A stretch of 26,098 bases of DNA from Myxococcales bacterium (GCA_045863395.1 BTVJ01000098.1:1-26098), one strand, 5' to 3'; positions 361 to 13,708 are shown, counted from the first letter of the stretch. Numbers and translations: made by a program. Notes: generated by a model from the letters alone, not told the origin.

Positions 361-1770
361 TCAGGGACGCAGCCGCTGGAACTTGCCGCGTTTGTCGTCG
401 ACCGGGAAGGGGGTCGCCGGTGGGGACTCGTCCGGGTCGTAGCCGCGCCCCAAGCCGGCGGCGAAGTCGCTGAAGGGGTCTACCTGGGCCTCCGCCAGGG
501 AGAGGCAGCCGATGTTCATGAGGCTCCTGACCTCCCAGGTGGCGGCCTGGCGGATGTTGTAGAGGTCGTCGGAGCCCGCCAGGTGGTAGAACTCGTGGGC
601 GAACATCTTCTCCAGCCGGGGAGCCTCCTCGGGGGTGAGCTCCTCGGGTGGCGTGAAGAGGACCGTGTAGTCGTAGTCCGGGCGGTTCGTGGCGTAGGAG
701 CGGCCCTGCCAGGGGACGTAGAAGAGGAAGGAGACCGACGTCGCGCCGTGGACGTCCATGGCGGACTGCCAGATGGCTCGGAGGGTGTCGGCGCCCGGGT
801 CCAGGAGGGGGTCTGCGGCGCGGAGCGCTCGGGCGATGTCCTCCTCGGCGGTCTCCACGGCGAGTCTGGGGGCGTAGCCCGCTGTGACGATCAGGCCGAT
901 CTCCACCGCGTCCTGGGTCGGGATCAGATCCATGGAGAGGCAGTTCTCCTCGAAGGTGCGGGCGCGCTTCACGACCCAGCCGAGGGCCGCCGTCGTGCGG
1001 TCCAGCACGTAGGCGCGCTCGCCCGGCTGGTGGACGCCCGTGTTGACGTCCACGAAGACGCCGTAGACCTGGTGGCGTCCGTCGAGGCCCAGCGTCGAGC
1101 CCACATAGGTGAACACCGAGCCGCGGTCGCGGAGGTTGCGCTCGTGTGAGATGGGCAGCACCCGGTCGCAGGGGATGCTGGGCGGGGCTGGCCGCGTCTT
1201 GACCCATGCGTCCGAGTGGGCCGGCTCGCCGCAGGCCGCCGGCGGGGGGCGGACGATGGTGACGCCGTCGGATCGCCGGTGGAGGAGGGCTGCGAGGGCG
1301 GCGATCAGCAGGAGGGCTGCCAGCGCGCCGGGCCACCGGAAGGCGCCGGGCGTCGCCGCCGGGCCGGCTCGCCTCGTGGGGCCGCCGCCGGGGGGCGAGG
1401 AGCCACCGCGGATCGGTCTGGTTGCGCCGCCCGCCGCTCCGCCACCTGTCGCTCCTCCTCCTGCCGCTCCTCCCGCCGCACCGCCACCCGCCGCACCGCC
1501 ACCCGTCGCACCGCCACCCGCCGCACCGCCACCCGCCGCACCACCTCCCGCCGCACCACCTCCCGCGGCGCCGCCCCCAGCACGCCCCCCAGCCCCACCC
1601 CCGGGCGACGGCACCGCCCCCGTGCGCTCCAGCGCGTACTGCCCCAGCATGGCCCGCGCGTCCGGCACCCCGCCCGGCGCGGCCCCGCACGGGCACCCAC
1701 CGGACTCAGGGAGCGCCGCCCCGCAGACCTCGCAGGTCCCAGCCCCAGGAGTGTCCGACTCAGGCGCCAT
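361..1770 (-). CDS. Membrane-anchored zinc metallopeptidase-like protein: N-terminal Cys zinc-ribbon, Gly/Ala linker, single TM helix, C-terminal HExxH domain resembling M6/immune inhibitor A
   Basis: 469 aa. CEVC...CPC at the N-terminus, TM helix WPGALAALLLIAALAALL, and motif AHEFYHLAGSDDLY (HExxHxxGxxD; HEFYH at 597-583) followed by SLMN, a Met-turn-like element. The start lies 3 nt after the upstream stop. Confidence 0.75.
   Translation of the reverse strand: MAPESDTPGAGTCEVCGAALPESGGCPCGAAPGGVPDARAMLGQYALERTGAVPSPGGGAGGRAGGGAAGGGAAGGGAAGGGAAGGGATGGGAAGGGAAGGAAGGGATGGGAAGGATRPIRGGSSPPGGGPTRRAGPAATPGAFRWPGALAALLLIAALAALLHRRSDGVTIVRPPPAACGEPAHSDAWVKTRPAPPSIPCDRVLPISHERNLRDRGSVFTYVGSTLGLDGRHQVYGVFVDVNTGVHQPGERAYVLDRTTAALGWVVKRARTFEENCLSMDLIPTQDAVEIGLIVTAGYAPRLAVETAEEDIARALRAADPLLDPGADTLRAIWQSAMDVHGATSVSFLFYVPWQGRSYATNRPDYDYTVLFTPPEELTPEEAPRLEKMFAHEFYHLAGSDDLYNIRQAATWEVRSLMNIGCLSLAEAQVDPFSDFAAGLGRGYDPDESPPATPFPVDDKRGKFQRLRP
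1475..1579. repeat. Coding tandem repeat: 7 units of 15 bp (consensus GCCGCACCGCCACCC) encoding (GGGAA)n on the minus strand
   Basis: Units start at 1475, 1490, 1505, 1520, 1535, 1550 and 1565, with degenerate copies continuing down to about 1425. Confidence 0.9.
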
Positions 1771-1773
1771 CGC

Positions 1774-2145
1774 TCACCACCCCGTCAGTGAGAGGCCCAC
1801 GTAGGCTGCCGCCGCCACCGCCAGGAGGCCGGCGCCGACGCCGGCGGCCACGTCCCGCGGGAGACCGTCCGCGCTCCGCGGGGCTCCGGCCCCCCTGCCG
1901 GTCGCTCCCCCCGCGGTCGCCGGCGCCCTCGTCGTGGCGACCACACGTTCGCCTGCTCCCGCGTCACCGCCGACCCCGCCCGCACGCGCCATCCACCGCG
2001 CGACGAGCCCCATCACGACGAAGAGGACCACCCCCACCGCCGCGCCCGCCAGCACCGGCGCCACGCGCTCCGCGGCCGCCTTCGCGAAGGATGGCACCGG
2101 GTCGCGCACGAGCAGCTCGGCGAACAGCGTCACGCCTCGCACCAT
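1774..2145 (-). CDS. Small integral membrane protein (2 TM), paralogue of 2149-2427
   Basis: 123 aa with hydrophobic segments VAPVLAGAAVGVVLFVVMGLVA and VAAGVGAGLLAVAAAAYVGLSL. There are 3-nt gaps to both neighbouring genes. Confidence 0.7.
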   Translation of the reverse strand: MVRGVTLFAELLVRDPVPSFAKAAAERVAPVLAGAAVGVVLFVVMGLVARWMARAGGVGGDAGAGERVVATTRAPATAGGATGRGAGAPRSADGLPRDVAAGVGAGLLAVAAAAYVGLSLTGW

Positions 2146-2148
2146 GGC

Positions 2149-2427
2149 CTACCCCACTCGGAAGACGAGGCCGAAGTACAGCGCCGAGGCGACCGCGATC
2201 AGCCCCGACAGCACCAGGAGCCAGCGCGCGCGGGCCTCGTCGTCGCCCTCGGTGTAGCGCCGGAAGATCGCCAGCGCCACCACGGTCCAGAGGACCCACA
2301 CGGCGAGCATGATCCCCGCCCCGGCCAGGACCGGCCAGAGGCGCTCCACGAAGAGGTCCCAGTACGCGAACCGGGGCTGGGCCATCGCGTCCGCGATCAC
2401 CGGAGCCCCAAGGACAATGCCACTCAT
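2149..2427 (-). CDS. Small integral membrane protein (92 aa, 2 TM)
   Basis: This is the C-terminal part of track ORF 2149..3246. The likely real start is ATG at 2427 (MSGIVLGAPV...), preceded by AGGAGGT overlapping the upstream TGA. TM segments are LWPVLAGAGIMLAVWVLWTVVALAIF and WLLVLSGLIAVASALYFGLVF. Confidence 0.75.
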   Translation of the reverse strand: MSGIVLGAPVIADAMAQPRFAYWDLFVERLWPVLAGAGIMLAVWVLWTVVALAIFRRYTEGDDEARARWLLVLSGLIAVASALYFGLVFRVG

Positions 2428-2432
2428 GTCGC

Positions 2433-5400
2433 TCACCTCCTGCGGAATGTGGGCTCGCCGGGATCCACGGCGAGGTCGGGGCGCGCGAAGGCGGGCGGCG
2501 ATGCCCACCCGGCCCCGGTGGAGAGGGCGAGCCCCAGGTCGTTCCAGTGGTCCGCGATCATGCGGGCCACGCCGAGGCCGCCCTCGCAGCCGTCGATGAT
2601 CAGCACACCGTGGCCGTCGTCGTCGGGCACCAGGTCCCCCACGCGCGCCGTCCCCGCCGCGCAGAGCACGGACAGGGCGGGTTGGAGCGCGACGAGGGCG
2701 CCCCAGAGGCCGACGGCAAAGGCGTGCGCCTCGTCGAGGCTCCAGGCGCCTCCGGTCACCAGCACGGCGTCCGTCGCGAAGACCGGGTCGAGCGGCAGCC
2801 GTGCGGCGAGCGCGCCGTCCTCGTGGAGCCGCCGTGCCACCAGAGACCCATCCGGGTGGTGGTAGGCGACGCCCCGGGGGCGGACGCGGACTCGCACGGT
2901 CCCTCGCCGGAACTCGAGCGTCGGGCGCCCCGCATAGGACTGCTCCAGCGGCGCTCCCAGGGCGGCCTCCAGCAGGTCGAAGGTACGCACCGGCAACGAG
3001 AAGCCCGCCCCGGCGCCGCGGGCGTCCTCGCCGAAGACCTCCCACGCCGCTCGCGTGCGGGCCGCCCCGTCTCGCCCGACGCGCCAGCAGAGCGGAGACA
3101 CGCCGTCGGTGCGGGCCCAGACCGCGCCGGGGAACGCCTGGAACAGATAGGTCGACGCGTCGCAGACGTATCGGGGCTCGACCCCGTCGGCGTCCAGCAC
3201 GCGCACGACCTCCATGTCGCCGGCGAGGGTGGGGGTCTCGGTGCACGGCAGGTGAGCCCCCGTCTGGCGCGGCGCGAGGCGGCGCGGTGGACTCCAGACC
3301 AGCCCGCCCTCCACCAGAGAGTACCCCCCGTGACTGCTCGCGATGTCTCCGAGCGCCTCGTCGGTCCGGGTGATCGCCTCGTCGTAGAGGTCCGCGCGAA
3401 ACGCCGAGAACGCATCCGCGTCAGGGCTCCACTGGTCCAGGATCAGGCGCGCCCACCGCTCGTGGGCGACGGGCAGGTGGGGGCTCGGCTCCAGCGGCCA
3501 CCGGGTCGCGAGCGCCAGCACCTCCACCAGCAGCCCCCCCAGAGTCTCCGCCTCACGGTCGGCGGTCCCGCCCGCTGCTCGCGGCAAGAGCGCGCCACGC
3601 TCAGCCGAGACTCCAAACGCGGCCGGGACTGCGCCGGACATGGCTCCACCGATGACTCCCAGCTCCCACTCCGCGTGGTCCACGAACACCACCGCGTCCC
3701 CGCGGCGGTATGGACCCTCCACGTTGGCGTTGAGCAGCGACAGCGCCCGGCGGCACCCGGGCAGCAGCGCGTCGCGGACGATGACGACGTGGGCGCCCGT
3801 CGGGTCGGGCCGCAGCATGGGCCAGCGCTTCGGGTCCAGCGCCAGGGGGGCGCGGCGCACCGTGGGCCACCACGCGTCACGTTGAAGCACGGACACGGGG
3901 ATTCCGGCCTGCCGGCAGGCGTCCAACACAGCAAACAGGGTCGGCGCGCCCACCTCCGTGCGGCACTCGGGGAGCAGGACCAGGTCGAGGTTGGCGGCGA
4001 CGGGGACTGCGTGGGCCGCCCTCAGGTCGGAGGCTGCAAGCTCCACGTGGTCAGCGGCCGTGGGCATGATTGCCTCGATCCACTCTCTGTCCCCGAGAGA
4101 GGGGACCGCGCTCGTCCCGAGCCAGACCGTGGGGGAGAGAGGCGACTCGGCCGACGACAGCACGACCTGAAAGGCGCGCAGGGTCTCGCGGAGCTGGGCC
4201 CGCTCCAGCTCCTCGAAGAGGTCCAGGTCCAGGACCGCGACCAGATTCACCTCGAGGAGGCGGCGGTCGCCGGCGGCCAGCGCTCCGCCCAGGGTGGAGA
4301 CTCCCATGACCGCGATGTCGGAGCCGCAGTCGGCCCCGACGGTGGGCCCCCCCTCGGCGAGCCCGGCCTCCTCCATCACGTCCTTGAAGGCGTCGACCTC
4401 GGAGGTCACCGAGCGGCGCAGGCTCAGCGAGTCTCCCCGGCAGGACGGGATGATGATCAGACACCGCGTTCGCGCGGACCCCTCGCCGTCCCCCTCGCCG
4501 GCCGTGGAGAGCAGCGCGTTGTGCAGCGCGACCCACCGGACGATGGTCGCCTTGCCGCACGCCGCCGGCCCATGCAGCACCTGGCACCGCCGCAGGGGGC
4601 GCGTGGCCTGCTCATTGCCCGGGAGCCGGCGGGCCGCCTCGTGGCTGAAGGGCAGGGGGATTGCCCCACTCTCGACGAAGAGCTCCGGACGCCAGTGTCG
4701 CAGCAGGCGCTCGATGAACGGCCGCGCCCAAGGCTCCCGGTGGACGCTCCCCGCTTCAGCGGCCAGCGTCGGACGCCGCACAGGGACGTCCAGCTCCAGG
4801 TAGAGCCCCGCAAACAAGGGGCCCGTCGCTGGCGACCCGACCCCGGAGACCGCCCCACGCAGCAGCGGCTGCCCGTAGGGGGCCGGGACGGTCCAGCCCT
4901 GCTTCGCGAGCACCTCGAGGACGTGGTCCTCTCGCCGCTCCTCGACGGATGGCGCAACCTCGCTCCCCGCCGCCCAGCACGGGGCGGAGTCCATGGCGAA
5001 GGCGGCCACCACGTCCAGCACGAACAGGAGCCCGGCGGCGAGCAGGGGCGCCGCGACGAAGGGGTCGGGGCGACCGGCGGCGTAGACACCCACCGCCACC
5101 ACCGCCAGGCCCGCGACCACCGCCACCACCGCGATTCCGCTGCGCCCCGGCGCCAGCAGGCGGTGGTGATCCAGCGCGCCCAGTGATCGCGCCCCTCCTG
5201 TCGCCGCCAGGGCCTCGCGGCTCATGCCGTGGTGGGTCAGCGTGTCCGCCTCGACTCCATGGCTGGCGCGCCCGGCGAAGGCCACCACGAGCCGGACGAC
5301 CGTCAACGCCGCGATCACCACCGCCACCGCCATGGCGCGTGACGTGGTGGGCGTCGGGGTGACTCCGAGGAGCGCGAGGAGCGGGTCCACGAAGGGGACT

Positions 5401-5690
5401 CCCGCGTCCAGCCACCACAGGGCCGCGGCGCCGGCGAGCCCCAGCAGGCCGCTGGTCACCGCCGCCGCCAGGAGGAACGGGCCTTGGTGGCGGGCCTGGA
5501 TGATCGTGGCGGTGGCGAGGTCCTCCTGGCTCCACTCGTCGGTCTCCTCGGGGAGGCGCCCATTCCCCGGAAGGGCGGCAGCGGCGCGGCCCCCCCGGCG
5601 GCGCGCACCCCCCTGGAGCCACCACACGACTCCGCACGGAACCACCGCCACCAGGACGGCCAACGCCGCGATGATGCCGAGCTCAACCAC
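2433..5690 (-). CDS. Multi-pass membrane protein fused to a degenerate SF2 helicase of the MrfA/YprA/SftH/Hrq1 type, with a C-terminal DUF1998-like region; probably an inactive pseudo-helicase
   Basis: 1085 aa, GTG start with GGAGGT RBS, and about 5 N-terminal TM helices. Helicase-like motifs occur in the correct order: GPAACGKA (4571-4548), LIIIPS (Ia), VAVLDLD (II, about 4241-4221) and LGTSA (III). AFPGAVW and IIDGCEGGLG (about 2600-2571) resemble the MrfA C-terminal region. Confidence 0.65.
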   Translation of the reverse strand: MVELGIIAALAVLVAVVPCGVVWWLQGGARRRGGRAAAALPGNGRLPEETDEWSQEDLATATIIQARHQGPFLLAAAVTSGLLGLAGAAALWWLDAGVPFVDPLLALLGVTPTPTTSRAMAVAVVIAALTVVRLVVAFAGRASHGVEADTLTHHGMSREALAATGGARSLGALDHHRLLAPGRSGIAVVAVVAGLAVVAVGVYAAGRPDPFVAAPLLAAGLLFVLDVVAAFAMDSAPCWAAGSEVAPSVEERREDHVLEVLAKQGWTVPAPYGQPLLRGAVSGVGSPATGPLFAGLYLELDVPVRRPTLAAEAGSVHREPWARPFIERLLRHWRPELFVESGAIPLPFSHEAARRLPGNEQATRPLRRCQVLHGPAACGKATIVRWVALHNALLSTAGEGDGEGSARTRCLIIIPSCRGDSLSLRRSVTSEVDAFKDVMEEAGLAEGGPTVGADCGSDIAVMGVSTLGGALAAGDRRLLEVNLVAVLDLDLFEELERAQLRETLRAFQVVLSSAESPLSPTVWLGTSAVPSLGDREWIEAIMPTAADHVELAASDLRAAHAVPVAANLDLVLLPECRTEVGAPTLFAVLDACRQAGIPVSVLQRDAWWPTVRRAPLALDPKRWPMLRPDPTGAHVVIVRDALLPGCRRALSLLNANVEGPYRRGDAVVFVDHAEWELGVIGGAMSGAVPAAFGVSAERGALLPRAAGGTADREAETLGGLLVEVLALATRWPLEPSPHLPVAHERWARLILDQWSPDADAFSAFRADLYDEAITRTDEALGDIASSHGGYSLVEGGLVWSPPRRLAPRQTGAHLPCTETPTLAGDMEVVRVLDADGVEPRYVCDASTYLFQAFPGAVWARTDGVSPLCWRVGRDGAARTRAAWEVFGEDARGAGAGFSLPVRTFDLLEAALGAPLEQSYAGRPTLEFRRGTVRVRVRPRGVAYHHPDGSLVARRLHEDGALAARLPLDPVFATDAVLVTGGAWSLDEAHAFAVGLWGALVALQPALSVLCAAGTARVGDLVPDDDGHGVLIIDGCEGGLGVARMIADHWNDLGLALSTGAGWASPPAFARPDLAVDPGEPTFRRR

Positions 5691-7092
5691 CGGCCACCTC
5701 CGGGCGGACGTCCAAGCAGCGCAGCTCCGAACGGTAGGGGCCGCACTCCAGGATGAGGCGGTCGCCGGTGGGGGTCGCGCGAAGCACTGGGGTGGGCGCC
5801 GAGGTGCCCCCCGCGCGAGCCCCCGTCGCGGCCTGCCACGCCTTCAGCGCCGTCGAGCACTCGCCGGCCAGCGTGGCGCGGGCGCGGGCCGTCACCCGGG
5901 AGAGGTTGTCGCGGGACGCGCGGAGCGCCTGTCTGAGGTCTGGTGGGGCGCTCCACGAGACGGTCTCCACGACCACGGGAGGCCGCCGGCGTCGCGTGAC
6001 CTCGTCGCGGTAGCCTCGCACGGCCCGGACGATGGCGTACACCCCGAGGACCGCGACACAGCCGCCCAGAATGGCCAGAGCGACGACGGAGGCTGCGCCG
6101 CCGGAGCTCCACGCGGAGAGTCTGCCGTAGGCGAGGCTCCAGGCGAGGGCGGCGGCGCCGAGCGCCAGAGCCCAACCCGTGGTCATGAGAGCCCCCCCTC
6201 CCGCCCGCTCGACGGTGGCGGACTCCGGTGGGGGAGCCGTCGGACGCTCCCTCCGTGTCCGCACGGGGACCGAGATGCGCTCCAGGGGGGTGTCGACGCT
6301 CTCCTCTCCAGCGCGCAGCCCCTCGATACGCTCCCGCTCCTCGTCACAGATGCGGTGGAGGCTGGCCGCGATGGAGGTCGCCTCGGCTTGGCGGGCGCCC
6401 TCGTCCGTGGACAGCGCCACGGCGATGACGCCCTGACCGCCCGGAGCGCCCCGGAGCAGGGTGCCGAGGCTCTTCGCCCCCTCCGGGGTCGCGAGCGCGG
6501 GCGCCAGCGTGCGGAGCCAGTCGGCCAGGCGGCGGGACCCGGCGCTCCGAAGCTCCGGCAGCACGGCGCCCAGCGCGGTGACCCGCACGCCGGGCACGTC
6601 GGGCGCCGCGGGAGCGTCCGCCGGGACGTGCGCGCTCACGCGGATGGCCCAGACCTCCGGTGCGTCGAGCCCCGAGACGACGGAGCGGGCGCTGGCGTCA
6701 TCTCGGAGCAGCCGCGCCACGGGCTCCGGGAGCGTCACGTCCGCGTCCGAGACGATGACCAGGCGCAGCCCCCTGGCGAAGGCGTCGTCGCTCCCCGGGA
6801 CGCGGAGCCCCAGGAGCCCGACAGCGTCACGGAGGGCGCCCACGAGCGCAGAGGCGTCGGTCACCGCGCAGGTCTGCGAGCGGAGGACGCGGAGCCACCG
6901 GTCGCGCCGAAGCGCCCAGGGCGCCCGCCAGCGGGCCGTGACCAGCTCGACGGCCGCCTGGGCAGCCCCGCCCACGCACCACAGGACGACCAGGCTGCCG
7001 ACGCGGCCGCCTTCGGTCGCGAAGCAGCCCCGCGTCGCCGGGTGCAGCACCCAGGGGGGCCACGTCACCTCGATGATCGTCTCTCCGCTCAC
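5683..7092 (-). CDS. Hypothetical membrane protein (about 469 aa) with a central two-TM hairpin
   Basis: Track ORF 5683..7116 starts at a TTG inside the tubulin gene; GTG at 7092, after a G-rich RBS-like run, is more plausible. TM segments are GWALALGAAALAWSLAY and VVALAILGGCVAVLGVYAIV. The end overlaps the next gene's start by 8 nt. Confidence 0.7.
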   Translation of the reverse strand: MSGETIIEVTWPPWVLHPATRGCFATEGGRVGSLVVLWCVGGAAQAAVELVTARWRAPWALRRDRWLRVLRSQTCAVTDASALVGALRDAVGLLGLRVPGSDDAFARGLRLVIVSDADVTLPEPVARLLRDDASARSVVSGLDAPEVWAIRVSAHVPADAPAAPDVPGVRVTALGAVLPELRSAGSRRLADWLRTLAPALATPEGAKSLGTLLRGAPGGQGVIAVALSTDEGARQAEATSIAASLHRICDEERERIEGLRAGEESVDTPLERISVPVRTRRERPTAPPPESATVERAGGGALMTTGWALALGAAALAWSLAYGRLSAWSSGGAASVVALAILGGCVAVLGVYAIVRAVRGYRDEVTRRRRPPVVVETVSWSAPPDLRQALRASRDNLSRVTARARATLAGECSTALKAWQAATGARAGGTSAPTPVLRATPTGDRLILECGPYRSELRCLDVRPEVAGG

Positions 7093-7102
7093 GGCCCCCC
7101 CC

Positions 7103-10100
7103 TCAGTCGAGGACAAACTCCAGCAGGGCCGCGTAGCGCTCGATGTCCGCCACGTAGTGCCCCGGGTAGTGCGCGCGCGTCCCCGGGATGGGGTCGTGCT
7201 TCGTGGCCATGCGCTGCTCGAGCTCGGCCTTGACGCGCGCCTTCAAGGCCGCGCGGGCCCCGGCGTCCAGGCTGCTCCGCATGACGTGGGCACCGACGGT
7301 CTCCGGCTGCAGCGCGAGCAGGGCGTCGTCCAGCGCGGCCACCGCCGACAGGAACAGCGTGAGGGCGCTCCGGGCCTCCGGGGACAGGCCGAACCGAGGG
7401 TCCCCCTCCAGCGCTGCCGTGCTGCGCCGCGCCTGCCTCACGATGGCGAGCAGGTCCGTCGCGCTGGTCGCGAGGCGGGGCTCCTCCCGCTGGAGCACCT
7501 CCACGTCGCCGGGGGCCCACTCCACCTCCAGGGCCCAGCGCGAGAGGTGGGCGGACTCCCGCACGTAGCGCAGGCCGAGCACCGCATCCCGGCCCTTTCC
7601 GGGCACGGTGATCGCGCGGCTCAGCAGGAGCAGCGCCAGGAGCGCGGCGCGGGTCTCCGCGGCCTCCACCTCACGCCCCGTGTGCAGCTCTGTCGCCTGC
7701 TCCGCCAGGCCGAGGAAGGGCAGGAGCGGGCGGCGGCGCACCGTCAGCCCATCGGGAGCCACGGACAGCTCGGTGAACTGCCGGGCCGTGAACAGGTCGG
7801 GGCCCGCCTCGCCGGTCTGGAGCTCGTTGAGCAGCACGTCCGCGTCGTTGGCGATCTCGTCGAACCACTCGGGGATCAGGGCCATGTTGCGGCGGTAGTA
7901 GATGAACACGTCCGGCGACAGCAGCGGGACGTGGCCCCGCACCACGCTCAGGCGACCGGCGCCCTTGGACTGGAGCAGCGCGATGAACTGGTTGCGGTCG
8001 TCGGCGAGGCGGCGCTGGTCGTCGGTGTCCAGGTTGGCGGTGGGCGGAGTCCCGATGGCGATGGCGGCAAAGGCCCCGGACTGCGGGCGGTCCGGGGCGC
8101 CGGCCACGGGGCTCACCCGGGCGAGGGGGCTCGACAGCAGGTCGTGGCAGCGCGCCACGACGGAGCCGACCAGGGCCTCGGCCCGGCCGTTGTGGAGCGT
8201 CGCGCGGGTGGTGCGGCCGCTGCGGACCCGGTCGTAGTAGGAGGAGAGGACGTCGACGCCGGACGCGGAGCCGGCCACGGCCTGCTGAGACAGCACGCTG
8301 AGCTCGCCGTAGTCCGCCTGCAGCGTGATGGCGCGCTCCAGGGTCAGCCTGGCCCGCAGGTACGCCTCCAGCTCGCCCTCGAGGGCCGCCTTGAGGCTGT
8401 GAGACGAGCGCCGCACGAGGGCCGCAGCGAGCTCGCGGCTGGACAGCCCCGCCACCTGGCTGCGGACCGCGGCCATGAAGCCGACGATGTGCGCGCCCAG
8501 GGTGTCCAGGGTCGCTCCCCCGTCGGGGGCGCCGCCCCCCAGGCCGCCGAACTGGCGCTTGATGTCCAGGTCGGCGACCTGGTCGAGGTAGTACCAGTGC
8601 CAGAGGCGCTGGTGCCCGTTGTGGTCGGTCAGCACCTCGTGATCGTGGAGGAACCCGCGACTCGCGGGCACGAGCAGCGCGTGGGACTCCTTGCGGAGCT
8701 CCTGGGCGGCTGCGTGCGCTGCCTCCGAGTAGCTCTCGTAGCCCGCGATGCGCACCAGCGCCGCCTGCCGGACGGCCGACGCCAGGCCGGAGACGACCAC
8801 CCACTGGAGCGCCTCGAGGGCGGGCTGCGCGGTCATCGCGTGCAGCTCGCCAACCAGCTTGTTGATCTCGCCTTGGACCTCCTCATCGGTGTTGTCCGCC
8901 GTCAGCTTTGACAGCCACTTCTCGAGGCCGGTCTTCGGGCGTTGGATCTCGTTGATTCGATCGGTCCCGGCTCGGACGTGCTCGTCAGCGCCCTTCAGCG
9001 CCGCCTCGAACTCTGCCCTCGCAGACTCCGCGCGGCTCGCCAGACGGGCGAGCGCGCCCGTGCCGAACAGCCCCGGGAAGCGGTCCGGGTGCAGCGCGCG
9101 AAGAGACTGCTCCACGTCCGAGGAGGGACCGTGACTCCAGTGGGGGAGCGCCGCAAACCACTCGTCCGGTGTCGCCGGCAGCGGGCTCGTGGCGTTCAGG
9201 TCGCAGGCCGTGATGGCGTAGAGGAGGCAGAGCTCGGCGACGGTCGGGAGGTCGGCGCCTGCGCTGGCGCTGCTCGCGGCCAGGTCCGACTCGGCCCCGA
9301 CCAGCGAGGTCCAGAAGGACGCAGACGACAGCTCGCGGGCAAACTCGGCGACCAGCGCGTCAGCCTCCCTCAGCGCCCCCGCCGCCTGGTTCTTGCGCTT
9401 GTTGACGACGGAGCTGAAGGTCGCCTTCTGCGCGTACAGGCCCTCCGCGAGGTGGGCGTCGAGACCACGGCTGGCACTCGTCAAGACCTCCTTCATCTTG
9501 GCGACGAGCTGCCCCATGAGGGTGCGGGTCGGGTGTGCCAGCGAGAGCGTCCGGGCCACCGACCCCCAGATGGACAGCTCGTTGGTGCCCGTCCCCAGGG
9601 CGCCGCGCATCTCCCGCGCCTCTGAGCAGCCGAGCTCCACCACGCTCGCGAGGAAGCACTTGCCGATGAGGGCCCTGCGCACGGCCGGAGCCGTCCGCGG
9701 GGCGGTGGCGGCCCTGGCCCGCTCCGCGTCGAGCCGGGTCAGCTCGGCCCGGCCTTGCTCGTCCGACGCGAGGCGCGCGAACTCCAGGTGGAGCGGCGAC
9801 GTGCGCTCCAGCACGTCCCCCACCACGAGCGTCGAGAGGTAGCGCACCAGCTCTTCTCGCGGCAGGTGGACCACGGCCGAGCCGTGGGCCGCGTAGCTCG
9901 CCGTGCTACCGGGGAGCCCGCTCTTCGGGCCGTAGACCTGGCTGAGCTGGAGCTGATAGTTGGCATGGTCGGAGGCGCTCGGCTGGTGGACTCCCTGGTA
10001 GGTAGCTGCAAACAGGGCCTCTGCGGCAGACTGATAGGCCTGGACTCCGCTCTGGCGACCGGTCTGCTCATAGAGGTAGACGTAGCTGAACGGCGCGCGG

Positions 10101-10984
10101 GAGATGTGTGTGACGGTGGACGAAGCCCACAGGGGGAGCTGCCCCTTGGCCGGGTCCGCGCCGGCCGCCTCGAAGCGCTCGAGGTAGGTCTTCGTGGCGG
10201 TCTGGCGGCCGAGCTTCTGGAAGTGCTCCAGCTCCATGAGCGCGGCGCAGCAGTTGGCCTCCACCCGCGTCGCGTTGACGCCATACTGGGCGGCGGTCAG
10301 CGCCGTGTCCAGGAAGGCGTGGCCCACGAAGTCGTGGCACAGCGGGTCGTTGCCGATGAGCTGGCGGAGCGCGGCGGCCACGTGGAGCGCGCCACCGGAG
10401 CCGGTCCCGCCAGCGAGCCCGAACACCACATGGACCTCGTAGCCGGCCTGCGGGTCCGCCTCCGAGACGGTGGCTCTGCGCTTGAGGAAGGTCTCCAGCC
10501 TGTCCATGAGGCCCTGGTGGTCCAGCGCGTGGTGGACTGCCATGCGCGTCACGAGTCGCCGCTGGCCGGCGCCCGGGAGCTGGAGCATGGTGACCGGTGC
10601 ACCGACGACGAGCCTCCCGTCGCTCACCGTGGTCTGGCGCGGAAGCCACGCCTCGAGCTGGTCGCGGACCCGGCTCGGTGGACCGGCCAGCGTGGCGTCG
10701 TACCACCGCTTGGCGCGCTCGATGTCGAGCGTGAACCGCTCATCGAGGTCCAGCCCGCTGCTGCTGAGCTCACCGCCGTCGGTGTCGATGGCCAGGTAGA
10801 GGTAGCGGGCGCCGACGCCGGCGTGGCCGGCAGTCGCGACGCCCGCCGCGTGCGCCAGCACCCTCTTGAATGACTGGATGGTCTTCACCCCGGAGCCTCC
10901 CACGCCGACCACCAGGAAGGTCCGCTGGCTGTAGGGGTTCACGAGGACGCGGCCTGCCTCTTCCATCGCGTGAGTGTGCGGCAT
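7103..10984 (-). CDS. Divergent tubulin/FtsZ-like GTPase (Tubulin_2 / FtsZl1-type) with a long alpha-helical C-terminal extension
   Basis: 1293 aa. Contains T1-like FLVVGVGGSG, YLAIDTD, T3-like GAGQRR, the tubulin signature loop FGLAGGTGSGG (AGGTGSGG at 10414-10391) and NCCAALMEL. AGGAGGT RBS lies at 11001-10995. Confidence 0.88.
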   Translation of the reverse strand: MPHTHAMEEAGRVLVNPYSQRTFLVVGVGGSGVKTIQSFKRVLAHAAGVATAGHAGVGARYLYLAIDTDGGELSSSGLDLDERFTLDIERAKRWYDATLAGPPSRVRDQLEAWLPRQTTVSDGRLVVGAPVTMLQLPGAGQRRLVTRMAVHHALDHQGLMDRLETFLKRRATVSEADPQAGYEVHVVFGLAGGTGSGGALHVAAALRQLIGNDPLCHDFVGHAFLDTALTAAQYGVNATRVEANCCAALMELEHFQKLGRQTATKTYLERFEAAGADPAKGQLPLWASSTVTHISRAPFSYVYLYEQTGRQSGVQAYQSAAEALFAATYQGVHQPSASDHANYQLQLSQVYGPKSGLPGSTASYAAHGSAVVHLPREELVRYLSTLVVGDVLERTSPLHLEFARLASDEQGRAELTRLDAERARAATAPRTAPAVRRALIGKCFLASVVELGCSEAREMRGALGTGTNELSIWGSVARTLSLAHPTRTLMGQLVAKMKEVLTSASRGLDAHLAEGLYAQKATFSSVVNKRKNQAAGALREADALVAEFARELSSASFWTSLVGAESDLAASSASAGADLPTVAELCLLYAITACDLNATSPLPATPDEWFAALPHWSHGPSSDVEQSLRALHPDRFPGLFGTGALARLASRAESARAEFEAALKGADEHVRAGTDRINEIQRPKTGLEKWLSKLTADNTDEEVQGEINKLVGELHAMTAQPALEALQWVVVSGLASAVRQAALVRIAGYESYSEAAHAAAQELRKESHALLVPASRGFLHDHEVLTDHNGHQRLWHWYYLDQVADLDIKRQFGGLGGGAPDGGATLDTLGAHIVGFMAAVRSQVAGLSSRELAAALVRRSSHSLKAALEGELEAYLRARLTLERAITLQADYGELSVLSQQAVAGSASGVDVLSSYYDRVRSGRTTRATLHNGRAEALVGSVVARCHDLLSSPLARVSPVAGAPDRPQSGAFAAIAIGTPPTANLDTDDQRRLADDRNQFIALLQSKGAGRLSVVRGHVPLLSPDVFIYYRRNMALIPEWFDEIANDADVLLNELQTGEAGPDLFTARQFTELSVAPDGLTVRRRPLLPFLGLAEQATELHTGREVEAAETRAALLALLLLSRAITVPGKGRDAVLGLRYVRESAHLSRWALEVEWAPGDVEVLQREEPRLATSATDLLAIVRQARRSTAALEGDPRFGLSPEARSALTLFLSAVAALDDALLALQPETVGAHVMRSSLDAGARAALKARVKAELEQRMATKHDPIPGTRAHYPGHYVADIERYAALLEFVLD

Positions 10985-11008
10985 GACGGTTCAGACCTCC
11001 TTTGAGGG

Positions 11009-13708
11009 TCAGGAGCAGAGGCCCGCAAGGCGGGACCAGGAGTAGATGAGCAGCGCGAGGCACCCCAGGATGAAGAGCCAGAGGTGCCACCGGATCGGGT
11101 GCAGCAGCGGACCAATCAGGTCGGCGAACGTCTCCCGCGCGGACCGCTTCTTCGCGCCCAGGCGGAGCTCGGCCCGCATGGGGTGGACGTCGCTGCCAGA
11201 GGCGGCCATCAGCCCCTCGGGGACTGACCGGACCGACTGGATCGGCAGCTTGCGCTTGGTGCGGAAGCCATCCTTGAAGTGGAACGTGATGTCTCCTCGG
11301 TAGTGCTTCGACGCGGGCTTCACGTAGAGGCCATACCTCACCGAGCCCGTGAACCACCGGGTCAGCATCCAGTTTCTCGCGCGCGCGCCGGGCGCATAGT
11401 CACCCTCCAGCGGGACGGGGCGGGTCTTGCCCTTCTCGTCGACGGTGGCGATCACGGAGATGTCTCGCAGCTCGCCGGGGAACCCGTAGGTGTTCACGAT
11501 GAGGAGCAGCGCGGCGGCCCCGAGCAGCAGGAAGAGGAGAGTCGCGACCACGGCCGCGCCGCGGCAGGTCCACCAGCCGTCCGACAGGAGGGGCTTGTGG
11601 AAGTCGAAGCGCTGCGAGCCGACGGGCACGGCGAAGCGGCGCGTGGGGAAGACCGTGACCACCGCCTCGTGGACTCCGTCCAGGCTGCACAGGGAGCTGT
11701 CCGTGCGGAGAGTGGCCAGCGAGACGGTGCCGCCCGCCGGGATCGTGAGGATCGGGGGCGCCAGCTCCACGAGGGCGTCCCCGGGGCTCGCCTCCGCGAC
11801 GAGGGTCACCTGCTCGGCGTCTCCGTCGGTCTTGACGTCCACGCGGGAGCCCACGAGGCAGATGGGGCACGCCGCCCCGTTGACCAGGGACAGGTGTGCC
11901 ACGTTTCCGGCGGCGGGGCAGGCGTCCCAGGGCTGGGCCTCAGCCCGGGCGCCGATGGCCGTCAGCTTGTCGAAGGGGTTGGTGAAGGTCAGGTGCAGGG
12001 TGGATCCCGGCGGTCCCCCGGGTGCGGGAATCGGCAGATCCACCGTAGACATGGCCGGGTCCAGCGCGCAGCCGTCGGCGTCCGGCTGGAACTTCACCGC
12101 GAGGTCGACGACCCAGGCGCCGCCCGCGTCCTGGCGGGGCGGCCCGTCCTGGGCGATGGCGAAGCACGCGGCGTGGGGGCCGTCCGGCAGGGGCACCACC
12201 ACGGACTTGTCCGGGCAGGCCTCCTCCAGCGGGGCGGTGACGCGGACGACCCGCGCGCTCTCCTCACAGCACCACGAGAAGGCGGCCTTCAGATCGAGTG
12301 GCTCCTTCAGCTTGCACGCGGCGCAGGAGAAGTCGCGTGCCGGGGAGAGGTCGACGGTCTGGCCCTGGCGTGTGGGGTGGTCCGCCACCACGCGGGCGGA
12401 CCAGTCTCCGCGCTTGCAGCGCCAGGGGGCGCTCGGGGCGTCGAAGACTCCAGAGGCTCCCACGCGGCCGAGCGCGAGAGTGGTCTCGGGCTGGCCCGTG
12501 CGCGCGTCGGTCACCACCACCCGGGCATTGCGCTCGTCGCAGCGCCCGGTCAGGTGCGTGCGGAAGCACAGCTCGGCGCCGACCGCGATGGGGTCGGGGT
12601 TTGCGGGGTCGGCGGGCCACAGCGCGGCGGGCGGACAGCCTCCGACCCCCAGGAGGAGGCTGCGGTCCCGAGCGTCGGACTGCTGCACGGGCACGAAGAG
12701 GGCCCGCCACACGGCCTCGGGCGGAGACACCTCCACGCGGAGCTGCGCCGCGGTCGAGGTGACGTGGTGGATGGCGTAGTGATATTCCTTTGAGGACTTC
12801 GAATACTGGTATGTGCTCTTCAGGGTCTCCTTCGCGGTGACGGACCCGGCGGTGTCCGGCGCTCCCTTCGGGTCGACCCCATGCACCGTCACCGTGAAGG
12901 CGCGGTCAGCCAGCACGAGCAGGCGCGTCTCTGCGCTGGTCATGCAGCCCTGGAGCGTGGGCACTTCGGGAGTCGCCTCTACGGCCTCGCTGTAGGCCGC
13001 CCCGACGCGGAGCGCCCCCGCGAAGGCCGACAGCAGTGTCTCGCCCGATGCCGTCCCAGTCGCGAGGGGGTCGCTCGTGCCCAGGGCGACGGGGAAGGAG
13101 ACGATGGTCCCGGCCGAGACGGCCGACTGCACCTGCTGGAAGCTCTGCTGGGACCCGGCACCGAGGGCGATGAACACGGACGGGATGGGCGAGGAGCGAC
13201 CGGTTGAGAGAGCCTGCAGCTCGGTAGCGTAGTCGCTCCCCGCGGCGCAGTCTCCATCTCCGAGGACGACCACGACCTGGGGTCGTTTGGGAGACTTGGC
13301 GTGGGCTGCGTCCATGGCCGGCTTCATGACCCGGAACCCGGCCCGGCAGTCAGTCCCCTCGCTGTATGCAGCGATAGGCCGGAGCGCCTTGAGATCCGGG
13401 GTCTTTCCGAGGGGAATGACGACCGAGGCGTCCGCGTGCTTGGCGACGAGGACCCGGTCGTCCGGCCCGAGGAGCGCCCCCAGGAGCAGGGTCGACAGCA
13501 CGGTCACCCGGGACGGGTCGTTTGCCTGCATGGACCCGGACACGTCGAGGAGGACGAAGTAGTCGACGCCGCGGGCGGGCGGGAGCTTCTTGGGGGTGCT
13601 GGCCGCGGCCTGGGCCGAGGCGAGGGCGAGGAGCGCTCCGATCACGAGGACGGCGCGCGTGCGATGTGCCCTTGCGTCGGCGATCATGGTGGCGAACGTG
13701 CTGGCCAT
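11009..13708 (-). CDS. Secreted, membrane-anchored von Willebrand factor A (vWA) domain protein
   Basis: 899 aa. Signal-peptide-like N-terminus (AVLVIGALLALASAQA), MIDAS DxSxS motif FVLLDVSGSM (13546-13529), then EGTD and VVVLGDG. A Cys-rich beta-strand stalk leads to TM helix AAVVATLLFLLLGAAALLLIV and a second C-terminal TM helix LWLFILGCLALLIYSW. Confidence 0.85.
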   Translation of the reverse strand: MASTFATMIADARAHRTRAVLVIGALLALASAQAAASTPKKLPPARGVDYFVLLDVSGSMQANDPSRVTVLSTLLLGALLGPDDRVLVAKHADASVVIPLGKTPDLKALRPIAAYSEGTDCRAGFRVMKPAMDAAHAKSPKRPQVVVVLGDGDCAAGSDYATELQALSTGRSSPIPSVFIALGAGSQQSFQQVQSAVSAGTIVSFPVALGTSDPLATGTASGETLLSAFAGALRVGAAYSEAVEATPEVPTLQGCMTSAETRLLVLADRAFTVTVHGVDPKGAPDTAGSVTAKETLKSTYQYSKSSKEYHYAIHHVTSTAAQLRVEVSPPEAVWRALFVPVQQSDARDRSLLLGVGGCPPAALWPADPANPDPIAVGAELCFRTHLTGRCDERNARVVVTDARTGQPETTLALGRVGASGVFDAPSAPWRCKRGDWSARVVADHPTRQGQTVDLSPARDFSCAACKLKEPLDLKAAFSWCCEESARVVRVTAPLEEACPDKSVVVPLPDGPHAACFAIAQDGPPRQDAGGAWVVDLAVKFQPDADGCALDPAMSTVDLPIPAPGGPPGSTLHLTFTNPFDKLTAIGARAEAQPWDACPAAGNVAHLSLVNGAACPICLVGSRVDVKTDGDAEQVTLVAEASPGDALVELAPPILTIPAGGTVSLATLRTDSSLCSLDGVHEAVVTVFPTRRFAVPVGSQRFDFHKPLLSDGWWTCRGAAVVATLLFLLLGAAALLLIVNTYGFPGELRDISVIATVDEKGKTRPVPLEGDYAPGARARNWMLTRWFTGSVRYGLYVKPASKHYRGDITFHFKDGFRTKRKLPIQSVRSVPEGLMAASGSDVHPMRAELRLGAKKRSARETFADLIGPLLHPIRWHLWLFILGCLALLIYSWSRLAGLCS

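Follow-up and report, generated by a model that had tools for sequence, protein, structure and literature searches.

Do seven tightly packed genes near one end of a contig from a Myxococcales bacterium form a single machine, and what would such a set do? The window, by which we mean the whole stretch of 26,098 nucleotides (nt) that was analysed (GCA_045863395.1 BTVJ01000098.1:1-26098), comes from a genome of 8.77 Mb with a GC content of 71% and carries these genes on its minus strand. The original prediction suggested that they form a trans-envelope machine comprising a vWA protein, a giant tubulin-like GTPase, a membrane-tethered dead helicase, paired small membrane proteins, and a HExxH peptidase. 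Our analysis divides the run in two: genes 1–4 are one copy of a four-gene set that recurs across the phylum, and genes 5–7 were found only here. A conserved neighborhood, one of the checks proposed for that prediction, was recovered for the first four genes and not for the last three. With no outer-membrane or secretion component in the four-gene core, a machine spanning the envelope finds no support.

The same seven open reading frames (ORFs), encoding 899, 1293, 469, 1085, 92, 123, and 469 amino acids (aa), were recovered with the same coordinates and gaps (24, 10, -8, 5, 3, and 3 nt from gene 1 to gene 7), and each frame was the top scorer of six in a codon model trained on the same genome. 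Purine runs resembling ribosome-binding sites (RBSs) precede genes 1–5. A hydropathy scan placed transmembrane (TM) segments in the products of genes 1 and 3–7 and a single borderline segment near position 1206 of gene 2, in agreement with the predicted six membrane proteins and one soluble tubulin-like protein. A promoter and terminator scan of the run returned nothing useful. Six RNA runs from three studies contain part of the stretch; in four of them, short low-depth contigs lie equally inside and outside the operon, one spanning genes 3 and 4, so that DNA carry-over is possible and no co-transcription is claimed.

Recurrence of genes 1–4 across the phylum

A Pfam scan provided family names for genes 1 and 2 only; for the seven genes, NCBIfam returned nothing above noise and PHROGs no match. 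Gene 2 matched the Tubulin_2 (PF13809) hidden Markov model (HMM) with 110 bits against a cut-off of 27 (E 2e-31), and its T1 (GVGGSG) and T4 (GGTGSG; AGGTGSG in the alignment) loops are intact. Its length is consistent with the coiled-coil middle and helical C-terminal domain of FtsZl1 proteins, among which its size is normal rather than giant (PMC2875224); a profile built from 16 relatives gave no match to its C-terminus. Gene 1 matched VWA_2 with an E value of 1.6e-5, just short of the Pfam cut-off, and carries a metal ion-dependent adhesion site (MIDAS) at D55-S57-S59, with T120 and D151 as likely partners. The protein is built from an N-terminal signal-like segment, a Cys-rich stalk, a TM segment at approximately 713–744, and a C-terminal hydrophobic segment, from which the vWA domain is predicted to face outward. 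With this MIDAS-containing vWA gene beside gene 2 and a membrane protein (gene 3) encoded 10 nt downstream of it, the locus has the layout of a vWA/FtsZl1 operon.

The distribution of this arrangement was examined by searching for PF13809, which matched 21 of 61 close genomes and 91 of 401 genomes of the phylum (96 places). Sixteen loci from the first search, one of which was dropped as not a true FtsZl1, and 60 further loci chosen for contig extent and spread (59 from the phylum-wide search and one from another), 11 of them picked in the knowledge of a weak helicase match downstream, gave a set of 75. Ten of these end within 6 kb, leaving 65 with at least 6 kb of downstream DNA. The order vWA, FtsZl1, membrane protein, and helicase-like gene on the same strand was found in 38 of the 65 loci, or 27 of 54 when the 11 knowing picks were removed. 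Many of the helicase-like proteins counted here also trained the profile; independently, Pfam placed DEAD or MZB above cut-off in three of the helicase-like proteins in one scan and in 12 loci in another. In two loci (L121 and L135) the helicase-like gene lies 4–6 kb further downstream, and four additional loci contain a weaker helicase candidate (best E 5e-6). The gap between the tubulin gene and the third position (slot 3) ranged from -4 to 37 nt in the 12 loci checked. When 88 FtsZl1 domains were placed in a midpoint-rooted tree, the 51 linked to a helicase all fell on one side and 16 without one on the other; gene 2 was placed within a clade with a support of 0.94. Related loci are not independent of one another. 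The module is present in five single-contig genomes (G045, G072, G185, G267, and G339). This gene order also occurs in a metagenome locus of another lineage with a GC content of 41%, whose fourth gene has a homologue labeled Bacteroidota, suggesting that the module likely extends beyond the phylum.

PF13809 matched three places in the genome that carries the window. In the second copy (G000:C32:20000-31979, L004), the genes for a vWA-like TM protein and an FtsZl1 are followed by those for a protein with two TM segments and one with four; the latter has a weak DEAD match and a C-terminal DUF6782 metallopeptidase, and an SNF2-type gene comes next. BLAST linked neither copy to the other, indicating extreme divergence. 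The third match (G000:C8:26400-31300, L005:8409-13270) is weaker (E 2.9e-7) and lies in a three-gene run that includes one gene with a MIDAS-like motif; similarly weak Tubulin_2 matches occur in several genomes of the class.

Table 1. Genes of the seven-gene run, with window coordinates and the evidence for each assignment
Gene	Assignment	Coordinates	Strand	Evidence
1 (core)	vWA protein	11009..13708	-	VWA_2, MIDAS, hydropathy
2 (core)	FtsZl1 tubulin-like protein	7103..10984	-	PF13809 (E 2e-31), alignment, tree
3 (core, slot 3)	Membrane protein	5683..7092	-	Position and slot-3 relatives
4 (core)	MrfA/DUF1998-like pseudo-helicase with N-terminal TM segments	2433..5690	-	Leave-out HMM, hhalign, fold, homologues
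5 (accessory)	92-aa two-TM protein	2149..2427	-	Codon score, RBS, weak similarity to gene 6
6 (accessory)	123-aa two-TM protein	1774..2145	-	Codon score, weak likeness to gene 5
7 (accessory)	Predicted zinc metallopeptidase	361..1770	-	Sequence motifs

The pseudo-helicase and the slot-3 protein

No sequence match for gene 4 was found in Pfam, NCBIfam, PADLOC, PHROG, or PDB, or in a single-sequence search of genome contigs. Its only matches among 1.84 billion proteins were four full-length homologues (32–63% identity), and an alignment of these five sequences found no match in metagenome contigs, genome contigs, or 106 other genomes of the class. An HMM built from 35 members of the helicase-like family, from which the subfamily of gene 4 had been excluded, matched gene 4 with an E value of 5.4e-15 over residues 301–1056 (best reversed decoy, 0.14). 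An earlier leave-out HMM of 14 sequences had missed gene 4 and its homologues, and the 35-sequence version still missed proteins P0002, P0021, and P0022. Alignment of gene 4 with the family by hhalign gave a probability of 99.2%, and the family profile matched MrfA (6znp) with an E value of 7e-8. The AlphaFold model of gene 4 was poor overall (predicted local distance difference test, pLDDT, of 45); its best fold matches were to MrfA (Z 11.4, 10.2, and 7.1; next unrelated, 6.0), the first with 245 residues aligned at a root-mean-square deviation (rmsd) of 22.7. By profile and fold, gene 4 is confirmed as a distant MrfA/DUF1998-like member, with approximately five N-terminal TM segments followed by an SF2 helicase scaffold.

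The motifs of the motor were then compared. In gene 4, Walker A reads GKA, as it does in the four close homologues, LDLDL stands in place of DExH, and motif VI is missing, as is the C-terminal four-cysteine zinc site (MZB) present in many relatives. An ordinary DUF1998 helicase of the same genome, used as a control (C59), is intact (GKS, DEVH, and QQSGRAGR). Among 61 aligned family members, GK(S/T) was found in 15, GR in 27, DExH in 1, and QxxGRxGR in 0, from which we infer that the family is motor-dead; most full-length members have two to five N-terminal TM segments. The dead, membrane-tethered MrfA/DUF1998 helicase that had been read from the sequence therefore stands. The least-degenerate form (L154:13200-16847) is the sole member with both GK(S/T) and DELH, and it lacks motif VI. 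At L076:10866-13669 and L112:5887-9339 the pseudo-helicase occurs as two ORFs, through either a split gene or a frameshift.

The original prediction had not recognized what the slot-3 proteins of relatives might be. Many of them match the FtsZl1 profile, and a profile of 30 slot-3 sequences aligned with FtsZl1 at 97.5% (E 8e-12), with a degenerate T1 loop. Profile matches were not significant for two subgroups, one of which has the tubulin fold by structure: a model of a subgroup without profile signal, folded from 12 sequences (pLDDT 78.5), was compared with 48,161 chains, and its top ten matches were all FtsZ, tubulin, or CetZ (Z 12.5–9.9), the best having 217 residues aligned over the range 1–651 at an rmsd of 4.0. 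This alignment runs from residue 1 to approximately 655, implying a tubulin fold split by a helical hairpin of approximately 400 residues with the hydrophobic segment at its tip. Slot 3 in relatives is thus predicted to be a degenerate second tubulin with a membrane-tipped helical hairpin. Foldseek also returned likenesses of slot 3 to pore-forming toxins and dynamin, which were rejected as generic helical matches (TM-score at most 0.25, rmsd >24). If the modeled fold is correct, such a split could be why Makarova and Koonin missed the later tubulin elements of FtsZl1, but no profile evidence was obtained that FtsZl1 itself contains a displaced tubulin C-terminal domain.

The 469-aa product of gene 3, which begins with a GTG start codon preceded by a G-rich RBS, is shorter than the slot-3 proteins of relatives and contains a hydrophobic hairpin at approximately 300–360. 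It has no homologue of its own (atlas matches <0.85; atlas model pLDDT, 0.40), and hhalign placed its first strands on the slot-3 profile at only 0.2%. Judged by its position, hairpin, and relatives, gene 3 likely encodes a heavily degenerate second tubulin.

Accessory genes, output enzymes, and neighbors

Genes 5 and 6, predicted to be a duplicated two-TM pair, are weakly alike: an equal or better score was obtained in 2 of 2000 shuffles and with 3 of 593 unrelated TM windows, so gene 6 is a probable paralogue of gene 5. The gene 7 product consists of an N-terminal Cys-pair (Zn-ribbon-like) segment, a Gly-rich linker, one TM segment (143–165), and the expected HExxH motif (HEFYH at 392) within HExxHxxGxxD and with a downstream Met. 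With this Met as a possible Met-turn, the protein may be an M6-like metzincin. Family searches, including Pfam and NCBIfam, and structure searches gave no match for gene 7, no homologue of it was found in 300 other genomes, and none of genes 5–7 has a homologue among the 7,967 ORFs of the fetched loci. We assigned these genes to the operon because of their spacing of 3–5 nt and by analogy with peptidase-bearing loci, and they are likely local add-ons.

Peptidases of other kinds accompany the module elsewhere, often fused to the dead helicase, which had also escaped the first description of the locus. A C-terminal HExxH peptidase is fused to the pseudo-helicase in ten loci, and a transglutaminase-like GDC motif is intact in four, with one further Pfam match and two degenerate forms. 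Peptidases are recurring, interchangeable partners of the module, and gene 7, which has a TM segment of its own, represents a third type that is not homologous to the fused ones. Kinase and VKOR-like genes follow the pseudo-helicase in some loci, and a PP2C gene precedes, or is fused to, the vWA gene in some. The kinase and VKOR-like cassette was seen in L028, L030, L076-L081, L087, and L089, with Pfam checks in L028, L030, and L087. Genes of 340–480 aa without a known family follow the helicase at L106:1266-2294, where the product is lipoprotein-like, and at the same position in L108, L115, L116, L120, L139, L154, and L155. After the module at L097:10507-19783 lie transposase-like ORFs, identified by eye, and a large RHS/SpvB/FG-GAP repeat protein.

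The window is a whole contig, which ends 360 nt past gene 7. An ORF on the minus strand at window:3-179 has a good RBS, begins 181 nt past gene 7, and is truncated by the contig end; the operon may extend into it. On the plus strand, divergent from the operon, window:13993-16362 encodes a 789-aa protein with weak coding bias and no family match, in which a possible nuclease-like domain followed by helical repeats can be seen by eye. Further along the plus strand, window:17128-21129 encodes a protein that combines a C39-like peptidase domain with Cys-rich repeats and a sorting signal of the MYXO-CTERM type. This signal, an atlas cluster, and a protein of a relative that bears the name "Myxococcales bacterium" all suggest Myxococcota as the phylum of the genome. 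At window:21416-26097, a gene for a CorA-like TM protein precedes one for a STAND-like NTPase that is truncated at the end of the contig. The matches of the NTPase are below the Pfam cut-off, and the two proteins are a possible defense pair.

Proposed function and relation to known systems

We propose, with a probability of roughly 0.4, that the module of genes 1–4 acts as a GTP-switched scaffold for signaling, sensing, or defense at the cytoplasmic side of the cell membrane. The TM-anchored vWA protein would bind a ligand outside the cell through its MIDAS. Inside, the soluble FtsZl1, with its intact loops, would bind GTP and polymerize together with the pseudo-tubulin of slot 3; the hydrophobic hairpin of the latter, modeled in a relative, would hold the polymer on the membrane. 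The membrane-anchored pseudo-helicase, having lost its motor motifs, would serve as a nucleic-acid-binding sensor or docking platform and not as a motor; DNA binding would follow from its MrfA ancestry. Assembly would then switch on an interchangeable output enzyme: the separate metallopeptidase in the window and, in other loci, either a kinase encoded alongside or a peptidase of the HExxH or transglutaminase-like type fused to the pseudo-helicase.

The most likely purpose of such a scaffold would be conflict, in which it might act at the envelope to detect phage, DNA entering from outside, or another cell in contact. The combination of a constant core, variable effectors, and fast divergence is the pattern that Kaur et al. 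read as conflict systems in related neighborhoods of tubulin and vWA genes (PMC7159879). We also count in favor of the scaffold the contrast between the T4 loop of FtsZl1, recognizable in 81 of 88 proteins, and the family-wide loss of the helicase motor motifs (DExH in 1 of 61, QxxGRxGR in none). A more specific and rather speculative version is a cytoskeletal immune platform, in which a tubulin heterodimer with a GTP-dead, membrane-inserted partner and a tethered dead helicase would sense nucleic acid crossing the envelope and fire a protease or kinase, the helicase having replaced the GTPase/GAP1 module found in known tubulin conflict systems.

Several observations weigh against a signaling or defense scaffold. 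The four-gene core contains no nuclease, PADLOC (library of 2023) gave 0 matches for the 12 window proteins, with no DISARM, Druantia, or other catalogued defense component, and no match to the module was found on viral contigs or plasmids. FtsZl1 is present in 27 of 34 genomes of one family, steadier than most defense genes. Matches of gene 3 to the profiles were not significant, and gene 3 itself is not established as a tubulin. Many loci have no visible peptidase or kinase, and gene 7 may face the opposite side of the membrane from the fused peptidases, to which it is not homologous. The helicase is missing from six loci of one clade (L107, L124, L136, L137, L147, and L158) that retain the tubulin and slot 3. 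Three genomes belonging to a single genus (L079, L080, L089, and L161) have a split operon, with slot 3, helicase, and kinase together and the tubulin on another contig. In L107, a MoeA gene and another vWA gene follow.

Among the alternatives, a machine for membrane remodeling, cell shape, or vesicles is doubtful but the most probable; the tubulin/pseudo-tubulin copolymer would use the slot-3 hairpin to bend or scaffold the membrane, with the dead helicase as a purely structural subunit. Makarova and Koonin proposed a membrane-remodeling role for FtsZl1 (PMC2875224). The predicted GTPase-fold head, long helical hairpin, and hydrophobic tip of slot 3 suit such a role, as do the steady presence of FtsZl1 in one family and the six loci that lack the helicase. 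This architecture resembles dynamin-type proteins in outline, but Foldseek lists BDLP, Mx, and Mgm1 only at TM-scores <0.2. Remodeling accounts neither for the variable peptidase and kinase outputs nor for an MrfA scaffold that has been kept whole and in many cases still has its Zn site, and FtsZl1 is patchy outside that family (91 of 401 genomes). We judge it unlikely that the module serves cell contact in predation, kin recognition, or development, with the vWA protein recognizing another cell and the scaffold passing the signal on to a protease or to a kinase and phosphatase pair. This reading accords with the likely myxobacterial host phylum, with the outward vWA domains on variable stalks (PKD, MopE-type, and Cys-rich), and with the kinase, PP2C, and VKOR-like genes beside several loci, but the core has no secretion, pilus, or outer-membrane gene (one weak OmpA neighbor was seen), the locus with 41% GC shares the gene order in another lineage, and the helicase scaffold is left unexplained. 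A channel for DNA uptake or transfer, with the helicase-like protein gripping DNA at the membrane, is very improbable: the scaffold is that of a membrane-anchored DNA helicase and gave weak matches to TIGR03817, a helicase of secretion neighborhoods, but the motor motifs are lost, no plasmid matched, and no relaxase, competence, or pilus genes were seen in the neighborhoods scanned. Least probable of all is that the window copy is a decaying duplicate with genes 5–7 as unrelated passengers, for although the divergence of genes 3 and 4 far exceeds that of their counterparts, a second copy exists in the genome, and genes 5–7 were not found elsewhere (300 genomes for gene 7; the fetched loci for genes 5–7), all seven reading frames are unbroken, closely spaced, and biased in codon use as coding sequence is, and the four full-length homologues of gene 4 (32–63%) with the same degenerate motifs indicate a maintained subfamily.

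Whatever its function, the module gives FtsZl1, which has had no assigned function since 2010, a four-part anatomy for its commonest context in the loci sampled from the phylum. The "unknown membrane protein" after FtsZl1 is predicted from the slot-3 model to be a second, membrane-anchored tubulin with a C-terminal half-domain beyond a long insertion, and the fourth gene appears to represent a helicase family that lost its motor and gained a membrane anchor. Should the module serve defense or contact, it would be among the rare instances in which a copolymer of bacterial tubulins takes part in conflict.

MrfA/YprA (DUF1998) and the DrmAB proteins of DISARM share a homologous scaffold with the pseudo-helicase (the gene 4 model matched MrfA with Z 11.4 and DrmAB with Z 5.2), and many relatives of gene 4 have Pfam DEAD or MZB matches. 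MrfA is soluble and works as an active helicase in repair, and DrmAB is a sensor in defense, whereas the pseudo-helicase has an N-terminal TM bundle and lacks DExH and motif VI, and no methylase or other DISARM gene was detected. The adjacent pair of tubulin-fold genes recalls the heterodimeric tubulins (alpha/beta-tubulin, BtubA/B, and Asgard AtubA/B), and the slot-3 model matched BtubA with Z 12.3 and AtubA/B2 with Z 11.8; unlike these, the slot-3 partner lacks GTP loops and carries a helical insertion of approximately 400 residues with a membrane tip, and its pairing with FtsZl1 is putative.

The closest relatives in gene order are the operons of vWA, FtsZl1, and a large membrane protein known since 2010, in which no helicase was described (PMC2875224). 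They share with the window the gene order, an FtsZl1 of 1,000–1,300 aa, an intact MIDAS, and kinases as frequent partners; the window operon lacks the GTPase and OmpA partners, and the downstream membrane proteins B1, B3, and B7 are not recognized there as tubulin-derived. The words "helicase" and "DUF1998" have 0 occurrences in its main text and six supplements. Tubulin and vWA neighborhoods were placed within GTPase/GAP1 conflict systems by Kaur et al. in 2020 (PMC7159879), as far as the accessible text of that paper shows. Their GAP1-N2 DO-GTPase tubulin theme likewise has a coiled-coil tubulin and an extracellular vWA protein with TM helices and is membrane-proximal, with two tubulin genes in Firmicutes and kinase/PP2C in a sister theme; a TRAFAC GTPase, GAP1, and FNIII proteins form its basis, and it occurs only in Firmicutes and Actinobacteria. 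The window has a membrane-anchored dead helicase in fourth position instead. Against Pfam and NCBIfam the seven genes gave no GTPase family other than tubulin and no GAP1 or FNIII match, although possession of the latter two models by these libraries was unchecked; DUF1998, MZB, and DEAD have 0 occurrences in two supplements of PMC7159879. The helicase-bearing type is not described in the accessible text of PMC3495828 or of 10.64898/2026.10.19.760177, and in agreement with the original prediction that this composition was undescribed, no account of it was found in the open literature, although subscription journals, bioRxiv supplements, and source tables may hold one. The vWA-FtsZl1 operons were already known (2010, 2020), and what appears to be new is their helicase-bearing variant.

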